From positions 1,291-65,290 of the forward strand of contig JAAYMO010000109.1 of assembly GCA_012521375.1 (NCBI GenBank): a DNA stretch of 64,000 nt, written 5' to 3'. The position numbers were made by a program, and so were the translations under genes. Origin of the DNA: Clostridiales bacterium. Its GTDB lineage: Bacteria > Bacillota > Clostridia > Lutisporales > Lutisporaceae. Positions 33,938 through 39,239 of this stretch are shown piece after piece (positions within the stretch are counted from its first letter, which is position 1; the number at the start of each line of letters is the position of its first letter). The notes under the pieces were generated by a model that worked only from the letters and a program-made list of their open reading frames with translations, was not told the DNA's origin and ran no database searches.

Positions 33938-34576
33938 CTAACAATGCAAGTTATGCAGATGTTTTCCTCTGCGCTTTTTAGCTTCATTCTTACTGTTACG
34001 AAGGAAAAGCCCCATTCTCTGTAATTTCATACCAGAGTATTTTTCATAACTTTGTAAAAAGCGTCTTATCATCTCATGTTTTTCTTTTGTAAAAGAAGGG
34101 TTGTTTGTCAGTATAAAAAAGCAAACATTAGCCAGATCAGTCCTAGCATCTCCCCAATTAATTTCTTCAAAGTCCAATCCATATATTTCACCTTTGCTGT
34201 AGATGAAGTTTCTTAAATTTACATCTCCTTTAAGCAATGTATTAGAATTCTTAGATATTTTGTGCAATTGGGAAAACCATAGTGCCAATTTATCAATCCA
34301 TACTCCCGTATCTAATCTTTCTACTAAGTCATTGATCAAATCTCCTTCTATATACTCCATAATCAAACGGTTTTTATCTTTACAGATTATTTTAGGCAAA
34401 TTGATTCCATAATCATAAAGCATTTCTATATTACGATATTCTATATCAAGAAGCTTTTCTTTGTCTGAGGAGAATACCTTCATAATTGCTAACTGATTTT
34501 TTTCTTCTTTATCAATTCTTATCTTATATACCTGATTTCGTTTGCTATAAAGTTTAGCAAGTATTTTTATATTCAC
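33938..34576 (-). CDS. Protein-kinase-like (APH/RIO/Kdo-type) small-molecule phosphotransferase
   Basis: SKRNQVYKI, MKVF, E.RNI, LIMEYIEG, LKGDVNLRNF (His replaced by Lys), GLDFEE; GTG start overlaps the mobB TGA (GTGA). Confidence 0.7.
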   Translation of the reverse strand: MNIKILAKLYSKRNQVYKIRIDKEEKNQLAIMKVFSSDKEKLLDIEYRNIEMLYDYGINLPKIICKDKNRLIMEYIEGDLINDLVERLDTGVWIDKLALWFSQLHKISKNSNTLLKGDVNLRNFIYSKGEIYGLDFEEINWGDARTDLANVCFFILTNNPSFTKEKHEMIRRFLQSYEKYSGMKLQRMGLFLRNSKNEAKKRRGKHLHNLHC

Positions 34577-35076
34577 TTGTCCAACACCCAATCCAATGCT
34601 ACTTTTTCCACCAAATCTGTAAGCCTTTCAATATCGGTAATGGCATTTATTACAGGAAGATGATCATAGCGACATATTTTGTTGCTGATAACGCCGCTTA
34701 ATGCAACTACACCAGTTTTCATATATTTTTTTATATCTTCTACTGATTCAACACAAAGTATTTTGGGAACATCAAAATCTGTAACTCCTTCCAATATCAC
34801 ATAATCCTGTGTATAGAAATTTAAAACCTCCGGCATGGGAAGTCTTCTTTTAAACAATATGTCCGTTTCATAAATCCCTCTGGCGGATACCAGTTCTGCT
34901 CCTGCTTTCCAATGTCTGTATGTATTAGTGCCTTCCGTATCAATGGCAAATTTTTCATAATGGATTTCTTTAACTGTGCCTACAGAATAACTTCTACGAT
35001 TTAATTCTTTTATGAGGCATTCTACTGTTGTGGTTTTGCCAGAACCTGAATATCCATAAATTGATATGACTTTCAT
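34573..35076 (-). CDS. mobB: Molybdopterin-guanine dinucleotide biosynthesis protein B
   Basis: VISIYGYSGSGKTT, VGTVKEIH, DTEGTNTYRHWKAGA, ILEG. Confidence 0.88.
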   Translation of the reverse strand: MKVISIYGYSGSGKTTTVECLIKELNRRSYSVGTVKEIHYEKFAIDTEGTNTYRHWKAGAELVSARGIYETDILFKRRLPMPEVLNFYTQDYVILEGVTDFDVPKILCVESVEDIKKYMKTGVVALSGVISNKICRYDHLPVINAITDIERLTDLVEKVALDWVLDK

Positions 35077-35128
35077 ATACTCGCCTCCTTTGAATTCAGG
35101 GAATTGTATTTAGAGCTTAAATCAACTT

Positions 35129-35854
35129 TTACCAAGATGTTGAAACAATGGCAATTAAAAATATCAATGTAACCACTATAATAGCATAATCTCCTTTTTT
35201 CATATTTAATTTGCGGTAATAGGTTCTAGTAGAATAGGCTCTAAAACCTCTGCATTCCATGGATAAAGATATAAATCTGGCTCTTCTCAATGCTTTTATC
35301 ACAGAAGGGGTCAATATATATGTATATAGGGAAATCTTTTTACCTAGGGGTATTCTTTTTAAGTCAGCCCCTGCCAGTTGGACTGCTATTATGGAGTCAA
35401 TAAACTCTTCTTTAATGAGAGGCAGAAATTTAATTGCAAGAAGAACCATAAATCCAATTTCTTGAGGCATCTTCATGGCTGCAAGTCCATATACCATATC
35501 CATAGGAGATGTGATTAGAATTATCAAAGCTGAATAAATTATTATAGACATTCTCAAGATTATTGATATGCCTGTTTCCAAGCCTTTAGTAGTTAAAATT
35601 TCTATGCCACCGAGAGCCAACAAAGGTTCCCCGCCATGAGTAAAGATGCTTTGAACTAAAGCCAGCACGATAAATACATACCATAATCTTTTAAGTCTCA
35701 TCGTAGCTTTTTTTAAAGATATAGATAATAACATGCATATTGCCAACGTAAGGGTCAATAGCAGTAATAGCGACTTTATCTCTTTCAATATTATTGCTGC
35801 AGATGAGATAAAAAACACAATTACGATTCGAGTCCTGGGATCTAAGTCGATCAT
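35129..35854 (-). CDS. ECF transporter transmembrane T component
   Basis: LDPRT, KFLPLIKEE, SMECRGF; CbiQ/EcfT architecture. Confidence 0.88.
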   Translation of the reverse strand: MIDLDPRTRIVIVFFISSAAIILKEIKSLLLLLTLTLAICMLLSISLKKATMRLKRLWYVFIVLALVQSIFTHGGEPLLALGGIEILTTKGLETGISIILRMSIIIYSALIILITSPMDMVYGLAAMKMPQEIGFMVLLAIKFLPLIKEEFIDSIIAVQLAGADLKRIPLGKKISLYTYILTPSVIKALRRARFISLSMECRGFRAYSTRTYYRKLNMKKGDYAIIVVTLIFLIAIVSTSW

Positions 35855-37201: not shown

Positions 37202-37710
37202 TCTATTGTTACCTCAAATACATATTTGCACCATCGCTGGCTGAAAGAATCTTTAACTATTATAAGCTGAAAGGGACCACTACCTCCTTTTTTCAAAGTG
37301 CCTAAAGGTTTACCGTCTTTTTCAAATGCCAAATAAACATGATCCGATAAGGCTTCATCTACAGACATAGCTATGACATATCCGTCTAAACCTTTTACCA
37401 GTACCTTTGAAGCAGATTTCAATGCTGAATCATCTATGTCTGCTTTATTCAATAGATCTTTTAATAAGACGCCTCTATATTTTCTCGATTTAGGGCCGGA
37501 GGTAGAGGTATCTTCGGTGGCTTTAAATTGATGATTTTCTAAGGCAGTGATTTCTTCAAAGTTGAGGCTTGCAGTTTCATCACTCCAAACAAAGGTTATG
37601 GTGCCATCTTCCATACTCGGGTTGTTCATGGTTTTCATATTCGCATATGCCAGTGTAAGCGTTGCTATGGCTAATATGGCTATTATCAATACCAATTTAT
37701 TATTTATCAT
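37198..37710 (-). CDS. Membrane-anchored single Oxidored_molyb-like domain protein within the ECF operon
   Basis: N-terminal TM; LNFEEITAL...YRGVLLKDLL...GLDGY...YLAFEKDGKPL...GPFQLII...RWCKYVFEVTIE. Confidence 0.75.
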   Translation of the reverse strand: MINNKLVLIIAILAIATLTLAYANMKTMNNPSMEDGTITFVWSDETASLNFEEITALENHQFKATEDTSTSGPKSRKYRGVLLKDLLNKADIDDSALKSASKVLVKGLDGYVIAMSVDEALSDHVYLAFEKDGKPLGTLKKGGSGPFQLIIVKDSFSQRWCKYVFEVTIE

Positions 37711-38251
37711 ATATATCACCTTGTTTTCTTATAGTTTTAACAATATTGTAAGCTATGAGGCCTCCCAGTCCCCCTGATAATGATGCTGCACTTAGAGAAA
37801 GGAGCAAGGGAATTAGCGGCAAGCGAAAGAATACCATATTTGACAACATAGTACCGGATATATTGGCCAGCAGGCCTAATATAAAGAAGCCTGCCGGGGT
37901 TATGAACTTGTTTCCCAACAATTTGGCTCCTATATCTATCAAAATACCTGGCACTGTATATGTTATGATGCTTATAGCACCATGGTTTCCATAGGCCCCT
38001 GTGATTATTACCAATAAAGCTTGAGTTATGCCAATTAAGCTTCCAGTACCAATTTTTTTAGTGAGGCCTAATCCTAAGACTAACCATAGCATATAAAAGC
38101 CACCTGCAGCAGCACCCCCTGGGATGTAAAGAGGACCTGTTATTATATGAACTAAAGGTACAATAATCGGTTTTATGGCTATACCTAAAGCGGCGGTCAA
38201 GGATATGACTACCAATTCAAACATAGAGAATTTATTCAAAAATTTGCTCAT
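37700..38251 (-). CDS. ECF transporter substrate-binding S component (substrate unknown)
   Basis: 183 aa, about 6 TMs, N-terminal A-x-x-x-A-type helix (SLTAALGIA), Gly-rich KKIGTGSLIG; directly upstream of ECF A, A' and T genes. Confidence 0.8.
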   Translation of the reverse strand: MSKFLNKFSMFELVVISLTAALGIAIKPIIVPLVHIITGPLYIPGGAAAGGFYMLWLVLGLGLTKKIGTGSLIGITQALLVIITGAYGNHGAISIITYTVPGILIDIGAKLLGNKFITPAGFFILGLLANISGTMLSNMVFFRLPLIPLLLSLSAASLSGGLGGLIAYNIVKTIRKQGDIYDK

Positions 38252-38270
38252 ATTACACCTGCTTTTTATA

Positions 38271-39239
38271 TTAAATTCTATTTTCCATCGTTATAATTGG
38301 TATGAATAAATCTTCCTCACAGAAAGCACCGTGAAGCCCTCCCACTTCATTATCATCATGCATACCATGGTCTGAAGCGATTATCACATCTCCATCAAAT
38401 CTCTCTACAAGCTCTTTTACATAAGAATCCAATACATTAAGCTGAGACAGGGCTTTTCCAGAGCTTGGCCCATATTTATGAGCGAAATCATCATAGGAAT
38501 GGAAGTGAACTAAAAGAATATCAGGAGGGTCCTGGATTTCCTCTAGAGCTCTTTTGTATATTTCATCATCTATGGTGCCATTATTGTTTTCATCAATATT
38601 TAAAATAGTTTCTACTTCATCGATTATTATCTGCATATTGCCTTCAATAACCTTTGAAGTTTTGCCTATTTCGGCAGCTTTATCGAATATGGTATGGACT
38701 TTAAGCAGTTTTTTTTCTCTGCTTTTTATACCTGTATGTAAAGGTGTAGTACCTGTAACCATAGAAGCAAAGGTCACATCTGTAATTGTTGGATATACTG
38801 TAAGGGCTTTTACTGCAGTTCCCATAGATGATATATATGGGACATAGCCCATTTCTATTGACTTATTATACAAATCATAACCTAGTCCATCTATATATAT
38901 AATAAGTACTTTTTTATCATTATTCAAAAAGTCTAAAACTTTGTTATATATACTCATTATACTTTCTTGCGGGGGGGTTTCAATTATCCCGATGGGATTA
39001 TATACTTTAAAACTATCTGTATTTACGATGGTATTGCCAAGTATGCTTTTTTTAATGCTTATAATATCATCAACATAAAGTATATCTCCATTTTCTGTAT
39101 AGATAGCATAACCCGGCATTTGATGTTTCCTATTTTTGATTATGATTACAGATTCGGAATTTGTTGATGTGAAAATCAGTATTCCGGCAAAAAAAGATGC
39201 TAAAGCTATAATAGAAAAAAATAAAATTTTTTTATTCAT
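38271..39239 (-). CDS. Exported alkaline-phosphatase-superfamily enzyme (NPP/phosphodiesterase-like)
   Basis: N-terminal TM/signal; IIYIDGLGYD, YPTITDVTFASMVTG (Thr nucleophile position), HFHSYDDFAHKYG, SDHGMH, HG; EF-hand-like DENNNGTIDDE. Start at ATG 39239 by RBS GAGGA. Confidence 0.8.
   Translation of the reverse strand: MNKKILFFSIIALASFFAGILIFTSTNSESVIIIKNRKHQMPGYAIYTENGDILYVDDIISIKKSILGNTIVNTDSFKVYNPIGIIETPPQESIMSIYNKVLDFLNNDKKVLIIYIDGLGYDLYNKSIEMGYVPYISSMGTAVKALTVYPTITDVTFASMVTGTTPLHTGIKSREKKLLKVHTIFDKAAEIGKTSKVIEGNMQIIIDEVETILNIDENNNGTIDDEIYKRALEEIQDPPDILLVHFHSYDDFAHKYGPSSGKALSQLNVLDSYVKELVERFDGDVIIASDHGMHDDNEVGGLHGAFCEEDLFIPIITMENRI

Follow-up and report, generated by a model that had tools for sequence, protein, structure and literature searches.

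A candidate ECF system under riboswitch control for uptake and salvage of the molybdenum/tungsten pterin cofactor in Clostridia

The locus described here raises the question of what a transporter of the energy-coupling factor (ECF) type would carry when its genes stand between those of an exported hydrolase and those of MobB and an atypical kinase, behind a riboswitch of the molybdenum/tungsten (Mo/W) pterin cofactor class. The usual view is that every cell using this cofactor makes its own, since it is too labile to share. The locus lies in a stretch of 64,000 bp from a Clostridiales bacterium (assembly GCA_012521375.1, contig JAAYMO010000109.1, positions 1,291 to 65,290), referred to in its whole length as the window, and forms an eight-gene operon on the minus strand (39239-33938) in which most adjacent genes overlap or almost abut. 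A preliminary description of this DNA had proposed that molybdopterin guanine dinucleotide (MGD) or molybdopterin (MPT) is trimmed outside the cell, imported, and re-phosphorylated inside. On balance, the comparative analysis given below leads us to favour, with moderate confidence, the reading that the Mo/W pterin cofactor is taken up and salvaged by a dedicated ECF system, which this operon encodes under riboswitch control.

All eight genes are encoded on the minus strand. The first (38271-39239) encodes a membrane-anchored extracytoplasmic hydrolase of 322 amino acids (aa) that belongs to the alkaline phosphatase (AP) superfamily and is of the nucleotide pyrophosphatase/phosphodiesterase (NPP) type (PF01663, 67 bits, E 2.7e-18). 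It is followed by a YkoE-like ECF S component (37700-38251; PF09819, 27 bits against a cut-off of 25.2, with conserved synteny) and by a small sulfite oxidase (SUOX)-fold, or Oxidored_molyb, module of 173 aa that has an N-terminal anchor and lacks the Mo-ligand Cys (37198-37719; PF00174, 35.9 bits). The ECF ATPases A (36458-37201; ABC_tran 95 bits, ECF_ATPase_1 203.7 bits) and A' (35851-36549; ABC_tran 112.7 bits, ECF_ATPase_2 167.6 bits) and the T component (35129-35854; CbiQ, PF02361, 75.2 bits) come next, and the operon ends with MobB, the P-loop GTPase of MGD synthesis (34573-35076), and an atypical Bud32/RIO/APH-like kinase of 212 aa (33938-34576). With S, T and two ABC ATPases encoded together, the transporter is of the dedicated (group I) ECF type; the best NCBIfam matches of both ATPases, ECF_ATPase_1 and ECF_ATPase_2 at 204 and 168 bits, are below the equivalog cut-offs. 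The true start of A' is probably an ATG near 36510, which would give a protein of 219 aa; called homologues measure 219-220 aa.

Conservation was assessed using six contigs from identity look-ups and 30 loci from a one-genome-per-species GTDB set, all scored with the twelve proteins of the window. In Clostridia and relatives, about 25 genomes at the species level carry the hydrolase, the ECF module, MobB and the kinase together, a co-occurrence far beyond chance. The order AP, S, small SUOX-fold module, A, A', T, MobB, kinase was found in five of the contigs (L001-L003, L005 and L006) and in about 20 of the 30 GTDB loci, over a range of kinase identity from 78% to 28%, with S preceding AP in distant loci. 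Close relatives (44-78% kinase identity), which belong to Lutispora, Tissierellales, Proteiniborus, Clostridiaceae, Tepidanaerobacteraceae and Thermoanaerobacterales, keep the eight-gene order, and the closest of them (48-78%) also keep, where the contigs reach, four further genes for surface proteins. Shorter SUOX-fold genes are located upstream in place of these four in the Tepidanaerobacteraceae and Thermoanaerobacterales loci (L020 and L021). Distant relatives (28-37% kinase identity) comprise Limnochordia, Eubacteriales, an uncultured Clostridia bacterium, and unclassified Firmicutes/Bacillota metagenome-assembled genomes (MAGs); their order is a large and a small SUOX-fold protein, S, a longer hydrolase, the small module, A, A', T, a MobB-FeS fusion, and the kinase. 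Conservation of the hydrolase and kinase with the ECF cluster, on which the preliminary description had made its proposal depend, was thus found in divergent genomes with the same gene order.

The gene content of the distant carriers bears most directly on the cargo. Among seven such genomes (G014-G020), MoeA and MoaE were detectable in 0/7, MoaA in 1/7 and MoaC in 0/5. A Molybdopterin-domain (FdhA-like) gene of the dimethyl sulfoxide reductase family was present in all seven, in five of them as a frame of ~890 aa with one in-frame TGA, and a MobA-like gene in 5/5 distant carriers. At six loci (L028, L031, L033, L034, L035 and L036), the genes NuoE-NuoF-FdhA-MobA-FdhD follow directly after the kinase gene as far as the contigs reach, and FdhA is a selenocysteine protein. 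These genomes look like auxotrophs as judged from their gene content: the last steps only (MobA, MobB and FdhD), a cofactor riboswitch, and a transporter beside the only obvious molybdoenzyme are what would be expected of cells that import metal-loaded MPT and then re-guanylylate it. In the case of G020, a 2.2-Mb MAG, poor assembly is an unlikely cause of the gene absence because the cluster is on a 760-kb contig.

The same argument was not extended to the close group on the basis of MoaE. No MoaE (PF02391) was detected in the window genome or in 19 of the 20 genomes that carry the cluster, but in a control set of 150 Clostridia genomes it was detectable in only 8 of about 28 MoaA-positive genomes, and two cluster-bearing relatives in the window's family have it. 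Its absence was therefore dropped as salvage evidence for the close group, since about 20 of the 28 MoaA-positive Clostridia likewise have no detectable MoaE. Alongside the undetectable MoaE, the window genome carries MoaA, MoaC, two MoeA, and ten ThiS/MoaD-like genes; the MPT synthase of Clostridia is either highly divergent or replaced, or many of the MoaA-positive genomes without detectable MoaE are unable to finish MPT.

The second line of evidence is the regulation of the locus. An RF01055 aptamer on the minus strand (39356-39238; 76.2 bits against a gathering threshold of 36, full-length model) ends at the Shine-Dalgarno sequence GAGGA and the ATG (39239) of the hydrolase gene. A longer hydrolase open reading frame (ORF) starting at 39314 was rejected as an artefact, because the riboswitch occupies this region, and the start assigned in the preliminary description is right. 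The window contains four Mo/W-cofactor riboswitches (9401-9510, 33769-33893, 39238-39356 and 44363-44482), and the genome eight. Stem P3 is missing in all three for which the alignment was inspected (33769-33893, 39238-39356 and 44363-44482); Regulski et al. are said to have proposed in 2008 that the P3-less type senses the tungsten form. The second riboswitch (33769-33893, minus strand; RF01055, 75.5 bits), ahead of the surface genes, is accompanied by an intrinsic terminator recognized in the sequence (33741-33773, minus strand), the 5' arm of which is complementary to the 3' strand of the aptamer. This alternative pairing is an OFF-switch architecture; aptamer and terminator coexist in the minimum free energy fold. 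An ECF riboswitch with a terminator 5' arm complementary to the aptamer 3' strand was also found at L014, and the leader at L006 resembles this arrangement with one mismatch. RF01055 precedes the cluster at L014 and at the distant loci L006, L028 and L033 as well. The riboswitches with a terminator are read as OFF switches. Genes turned off by a cofactor are normally those for its synthesis or acquisition, and an OFF architecture in a riboswitch class specific for the Mo/W cofactor points to cofactor uptake. In the leader of the operon itself, the Shine-Dalgarno sequence is just 3' of P1, and a possible AUAA/UUAU extension masking the start codon was seen by eye only. The fourth riboswitch (9401-9510) precedes a ferredoxin-aldehyde ferredoxin oxidoreductase (AOR) operon, a cofactor user, and its ON/OFF logic may be opposite to that of the others. 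Two cyclic di-AMP riboswitches (14773-14929 and 17245-17413), probably unrelated, are located a few kb downstream of the cluster in the Tepidanaerobacteraceae MAG of L020.

Downstream of the second riboswitch, the associated surface module of four genes (25477-33651, minus strand, all assigned by Pfam) encodes an S-layer-anchored protein of 1515 aa with Oxidored_molyb repeats (29104-33651), an Oxidored_molyb lipoprotein (28281-29042), an FMN_bind+Oxidored_molyb protein (26693-28270), and a NapH-like Fer4_5+FMN_bind membrane protein (25477-26673). In the window genome, which is 97% complete, Oxidored_molyb domains are confined to this cluster, in proteins whose N-termini are all of the Sec, lipoprotein or anchor type, and TatC was undetectable; any cofactor that these proteins hold would therefore have been met outside the cell. 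Family alignments, on which the question of the Cys rests rather than on structure superposition, have no invariant Cys in the Mo-ligand loop region before the Y/W-x-G-V-x-L motif; DTSxSGP, which replaces the Cys loop in the small module, or TTG or SSG is found instead, unlike in SUOX molybdoenzymes. The best PDB matches of the small module were the PruR-type pterin-binding proteins 7kos and 7kom (E 6e-4 and 4e-3), and a single-sequence phmmer search of PDB with the FMN_bind+Oxidored_molyb protein returned only RnfG/NqrC, for the FMN domain. Proteins of the PruR type have a SUOX fold that lacks the Cys and bind pterins non-catalytically (PMC11194511). From these likenesses, the SUOX-fold modules are proposed to be binders rather than enzymes, and the small module to be the pterin-cofactor receptor for the S component.

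These findings also bear on what is bound. The cargo could be another pterin, a precursor or a breakdown product, such as cyclic pyranopterin monophosphate (cPMP), metal-free MPT, Form A-type oxidised pterins, or a non-molybdenum-cofactor (non-Moco) pterin as in PruR, with only a regulatory link to MobB and the riboswitch. Among the intermediates, cPMP has the greatest stability, and the close group keeps MoeA, which could metallate imported MPT. The closest solved relatives of the binder, moreover, hold small non-Moco pterins in a truncated pocket (PMC11194511). We nevertheless consider this alternative improbable: the distant carriers, with neither MoeA nor MoaE detectable, could not turn cPMP or metal-free MPT into finished cofactor, the Mo/W cofactor itself is what the riboswitch class senses, and MobB, MobA and FdhD act on the finished cofactor.

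The direction of transport can be weighed in the same way. The ECF module might export a cofactor made by the cell, with enzymes outside maturing the Sec-exported SUOX-fold and FMN proteins into an extracytoplasmic reductase, as in the export of flavin adenine dinucleotide (FAD) by EetB/FmnA for flavinylation by ApbE. Firmicutes do have ECF exporters, which colocalise with flavinylated extracytosolic proteins (PMC9973259). In the close group, ApbE and biosynthesis genes are present and a twin-arginine translocation (Tat) system was undetectable, and FMN_bind and NapH-like proteins adjoin the cluster. Export would, however, leave the distant carriers, with biosynthesis genes undetectable, with nothing to export, and the terminator riboswitches read as OFF, which is the wrong sense for a cofactor-consuming function. 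The SUOX-fold domains lack the Mo-ligand Cys needed for catalysis, the S component matches an importer family (PF09819), and in most distant loci neither FMN_bind nor a NapH-like module was detected, although L006 has an FMN_bind protein. Export is ranked as very improbable because of the riboswitch logic and the carriers without detectable biosynthesis genes, and on the same two grounds inward transport is inferred.

In the uptake and salvage reading, the hydrolase would act ahead of the transporter. Its N-terminus has one hydrophobic helix or anchor (KKILFFSIIALASFFAGILIF) and no twin-arginine motif. In a 17-sequence family alignment, there is no or almost no variation in the metal-ligand motifs (IDGLGY, YDDxxH, SDHGM and GGxHG) and at the T/S nucleophile in YP-x-I-T; D117, D250/H254, D290/H291 and H303 are invariant, with T or S at the nucleophile column, as expected of a member of the AP superfamily. 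In a profile alignment to the Xanthomonas NPP 2gsn, the Thr aligns with the nucleophile Thr, which together with PF01663 and the anchor bears out the preliminary description of an exported AP-superfamily enzyme with an NPP-type Thr. The Asn of the NPP HGIVHN motif is replaced in the same alignment by an invariant Arg (R174). We take this Asn to contact the phosphoryl group in NPPs and, by analogy with Arg166 of alkaline phosphatase, assume that the Arg could favour more charged substrates, e.g. monoesters or pyrophosphates. The AlphaFold2 (AF2) model (pLDDT 91.8) gave phosphonoacetate hydrolase 1ei6 and ENPP1/3/5/7 as the best Foldseek matches. As judged from these residues, the hydrolase looks catalytically competent. 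The hydrolases of distant loci are extended at the N-terminus by a further domain, which hhalign aligns to the small module (probability 68%, E 4.8e-5), and this fusion ties the hydrolase to whatever the small module binds. Residues about 213-226 form an invariant EF-hand-like loop (LNxDxNxDGxxDxE) outside the standard NPP catalytic core, which may be a Ca2+ site. In one Clostridiaceae MAG (L016:5372-6352), the hydrolase gene is split in two ORFs of 162 and 114 aa, either by a frameshift or by an assembly error.

If the enzyme behaves as a typical NPP, it would remove GMP or CMP from MGD or molybdopterin cytosine dinucleotide (MCD) and MPT would stay phosphorylated, in which case MobA and MobB would suffice for the rebuild. 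If the terminal phosphate were removed by the hydrolase, or if the cofactor met outside were already dephosphorylated, a salvage kinase would be needed, and the exchange of Asn for Arg is a hint in this direction. If a dephosphorylated cofactor does arrive, the APH-like enzyme coupled to MobB would be the obvious candidate for such a kinase.

MobB has the Walker A motif GYSGSGKTT and scores 85.1 bits with TIGR00176, above the equivalog cut-off of 76.2 (PF03205, 73.1 bits), so that its naming as mobB in the preliminary description stands. Likewise upheld are the translational coupling, in which the kinase GTG at 34576 overlaps the MobB TGA as GTGA, and the atypical KGDxxxxN loop of an APH/RIO-like kinase, which reads KGDVNLRNF; the database copy of the kinase, at 212 aa, agrees with the GTG start. 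Among 19 homologues, K33, E46, D118, N123 and D135 are invariant, K116 is nearly so, and a basic C-terminal tail (R202, R203) is conserved. The tail is reminiscent of that of Bud32, which reaches into Kae1. Pfam scores are above cut-off for RIO1 (PF01163, 27.4 against 22 bits) and APH (PF01636, 25.6 against 23.2 bits), and Choline_kinase also matches. The best NCBIfam match is archaeal Bud32 (TIGR03724) at 48 bits, far below the equivalog cut-off of 125, and the neighbour is MobB, not Kae1; the protein is thus not assigned to Bud32 of KEOPS. In Foldseek, the AF2 model (pLDDT 92.3) has its top hits in Rio1, PRPK/Bud32 and Kae1-Bud32 and matches APH(3')-Ia about equally (TM-score ~0.65). The family comprises 282 clusters at 50% identity with E <= 1e-30, and its conserved residues make the kinase look catalytically competent. 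The kinase gene is adjacent to or overlaps mobB in 24 of the 30 GTDB loci, including L025, where the order is inverted, and the pair persists at L029 although no ECF genes were found in the 7 kb upstream. Homologues with 41-49% identity also occur alone, without MobB or ECF genes, in Methanobacteriaceae MAGs (L023, L024 and L026) and at L004, where the lone kinase gene adjoins a ThiF-like and a PNPOx-like gene.

Two roles can be proposed for this protein. Re-phosphorylation of dephospho-molybdopterin is plausible, and we rate about equally a role as a Bud32-like ATPase partner of MobB; taken by itself, the assignment as a true dephospho-molybdopterin kinase is tentative. The second role belongs to an alternative that keeps a pterin-cofactor importer but has the kinase act as a Bud32/RIO-like ATPase, which would control the hand-over as a partner of MobB or of the ECF ATPases, the hydrolase being only a GMP/CMP-removing pyrophosphatase. 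The Bud32 match, the fold matches to Rio1 and Bud32 at a TM-score equal to that for APH, the pairing with mobB even where the order is inverted or the ECF genes are not found, the basic tail, and the phosphomonoester that NPP-type enzymes normally leave all agree with it. Set against it are the phosphotransfer residues, all of which are invariant, so that a true kinase is equally possible; the Pfam matches to APH and Choline_kinase; the precedent of APH-family salvage kinases such as the thiamine kinase ThiK; and the lone homologues without MobB. We regard this alternative as a serious possibility, short of the one we would expect.

For the uptake and salvage reading, we infer what is transported and in which direction, what chemistry the hydrolase and kinase perform, and how the cofactor is handed over, as follows. 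Cofactor released by other cells would be caught outside by the Sec-exported Cys-less SUOX-fold modules, which, because they have no Mo-ligating Cys, would bind it reversibly. The anchored NPP-type hydrolase would trim ill-fitting forms by cutting the pyrophosphate of MGD or MCD, and possibly by removing the terminal phosphate too. The trimmed pterin would go from the small anchored module to the S component and be imported by the ECF module. In the cytoplasm, MobB would take the pterin and, with MobA, rebuild the guanine dinucleotide for enzymes such as formate dehydrogenase, while the coupled kinase would either restore the 4'-phosphate on dephosphorylated cofactor or serve as the ATPase partner of MobB. 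When the cofactor is plentiful in the cytoplasm, the riboswitch would shut the operon off. The trim, import and rebuild logic of the preliminary description is in its general form strongly supported by the comparative genomics, through the riboswitch, the conserved hydrolase, ECF, MobB and kinase genes, and FdhA, MobA and FdhD in the distant carriers; its more specific claims, removal of the terminal phosphate and action of the kinase on dephospho-MPT, are tentative. The most complete form of the scheme, a dedicated prokaryotic Mo/W cofactor salvage pathway with capture by Cys-less SUOX folds, ecto-trimming by a new NPP variant, ECF import, and a new dephospho-molybdopterin kinase acting with MobB and MobA, is in our judgement rather unlikely as a whole.

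Several points weigh against the uptake and salvage reading. An NPP-type cut of MGD keeps the phosphate and would leave the kinase without an obvious job. There is no terminator between the operon's own aptamer (39356-39238) and the start codon, and its ON/OFF sense is unproven. The FMN_bind/NapH-like electron module next door is unexplained by simple uptake; as a speculation, this conduit may keep the bound cofactor reduced. The pterins bound by PruR-type modules are small and other than Moco, and such a pterin could be the cargo here as well. Completeness is unreported for the distant MAGs, and Moco genes cluster, so that one missing contig could remove several of them; every carrier in the genome collection is a MAG. 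The close group, including the window genome, has MoaA, MoaC and two MoeA and is not obviously auxotrophic. Within the taxonomic family of the window, the cluster is patchy and does not track MoaA, two MoaA-positive genomes being without the kinase marker gene; a same-genus relative without both MoaA and the kinase gene is uninformative. ECF modules can also export (PMC9973259).

The other strand of the window encodes a T-box-ileS unit, moaC, the third riboswitch with a Tup-like ABC transporter, two moeA, moaA and a MOSC gene. The P3-less riboswitches, the AORs and the Tup-like transporter point to the tungsten form of the cofactor. One of the two MoeA (48272-50176, plus strand) has a C-terminal PBP_like domain of the tungstate/molybdate-binding type fused to it and adjoins the plain MoeA (47020-48246), and the same pair is found in most close-group genomes. 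The small MOSC-domain protein (51181-51618, plus strand), encoded directly after moaA, may be a partner that handles sulfur in this genome, where MoaE is undetectable. Another importer-plus-kinase pair is present on the minus strand (52541-53704), where the gene for a second ECF S component (PF12822, 53126-53704) is immediately upstream of that for a P-loop kinase of the PRK/uridine kinase family (52541-53122).

No bacterial Moco transporter, uptake or salvage system, nor this operon, was found in the searchable literature, which returned only work on dietary Moco in C. elegans and other nematodes and unrelated papers. A survey of riboswitch regulons has no Moco uptake category (PMC3766115), and Oxidored_molyb is unmentioned in the main text of a survey of flavinylation (PMC8238504). 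As read here, the system is a riboswitch-controlled ECF cofactor salvage system with an unprecedented cargo. If this is true, anaerobic communities would trade Moco and the tungsten cofactor (Wco) as a "vitamin", there would be an explanation for genomes that retain molybdo- or tungsto-enzymes with biosynthesis genes undetectable, and MobB, the role of which is still vague, would have a concrete job. The binder, transporter and kinase would then be proteins that stabilise and move the cofactor, with a bearing on cofactor delivery in engineered hosts and on Moco-deficiency research. If the complete salvage pathway is true, some Clostridia and Limnochordia would be natural Moco auxotrophs running a selenocysteine formate dehydrogenase on the cofactor of their neighbours. 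The pair of hydrolase and kinase makes the hypothesis directly testable in vitro.

Three components can be compared individually with characterized proteins. The small module shares with PruR (Agrobacterium tumefaciens and homologues; 7kos, 7kom; PMC11194511) a small exported Cys-less SUOX fold and the position of a stacking Tyr (DGY), but PruR has a PW motif at the Cys position where the small module has DTSxSGP, and signals to a DcpA-type cyclic di-GMP enzyme where the small module is partnered with an ECF transporter; the context is a Moco riboswitch and MobB here and folate-branch pterins for PruR. The hydrolase has the core fold, the Thr nucleophile in YP-x-x-T, and the six bimetallo ligands of the NPPs (2gsn, ENPP1-7) and PhnA (1ei6). 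It differs in its minimal core of ~230 aa, N-terminal membrane anchor and beta-rich pre-domain, in the invariant Arg at the position of the phosphate-contacting Asn of NPPs, in the EF-hand-like loop, and in the SUOX-like domain fused in distant relatives. The kinase has the minimal eukaryotic-like kinase fold of the Bud32/PRPK, RIO and APH kinases with the invariant Lys, Glu, catalytic Asp, Asn and metal-binding Asp, but with KGD for HGD in the catalytic loop and SKRNxV for the Gly-rich loop, and, unlike Bud32, it has no Kae1 partner and is always paired with MobB in the cluster.

As a whole, the operon resembles group I ECF vitamin importers, e.g. YkoEDC (thiamine precursor, PF09819), in having S, T and two ATPases in one operon behind an end-product riboswitch and an S component of PF09819. 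It differs from them in its implied Mo/W pterin cargo, for which there is no known bacterial transporter. Whereas ECF systems are normally without an extracytoplasmic binding protein, one to several SUOX-fold modules are present here, and none of the described ECF systems has MobB or a Bud32-like mini-kinase. The Listeria EetB/FmnA flavin exporter (PMC9973259) likewise places an ECF module beside extracytosolic FMN_bind redox proteins in Firmicutes, but it has an S component of another family, and in the present case import is favoured by the riboswitch logic and by carriers in which biosynthesis genes are undetectable. A further parallel is the salvage of thiamine, of riboflavin and FAD, and of NAD, in which hydrolysis outside the cell is followed by import and by an intracellular kinase; trimming outside and an APH-like kinase inside would fit this scheme.

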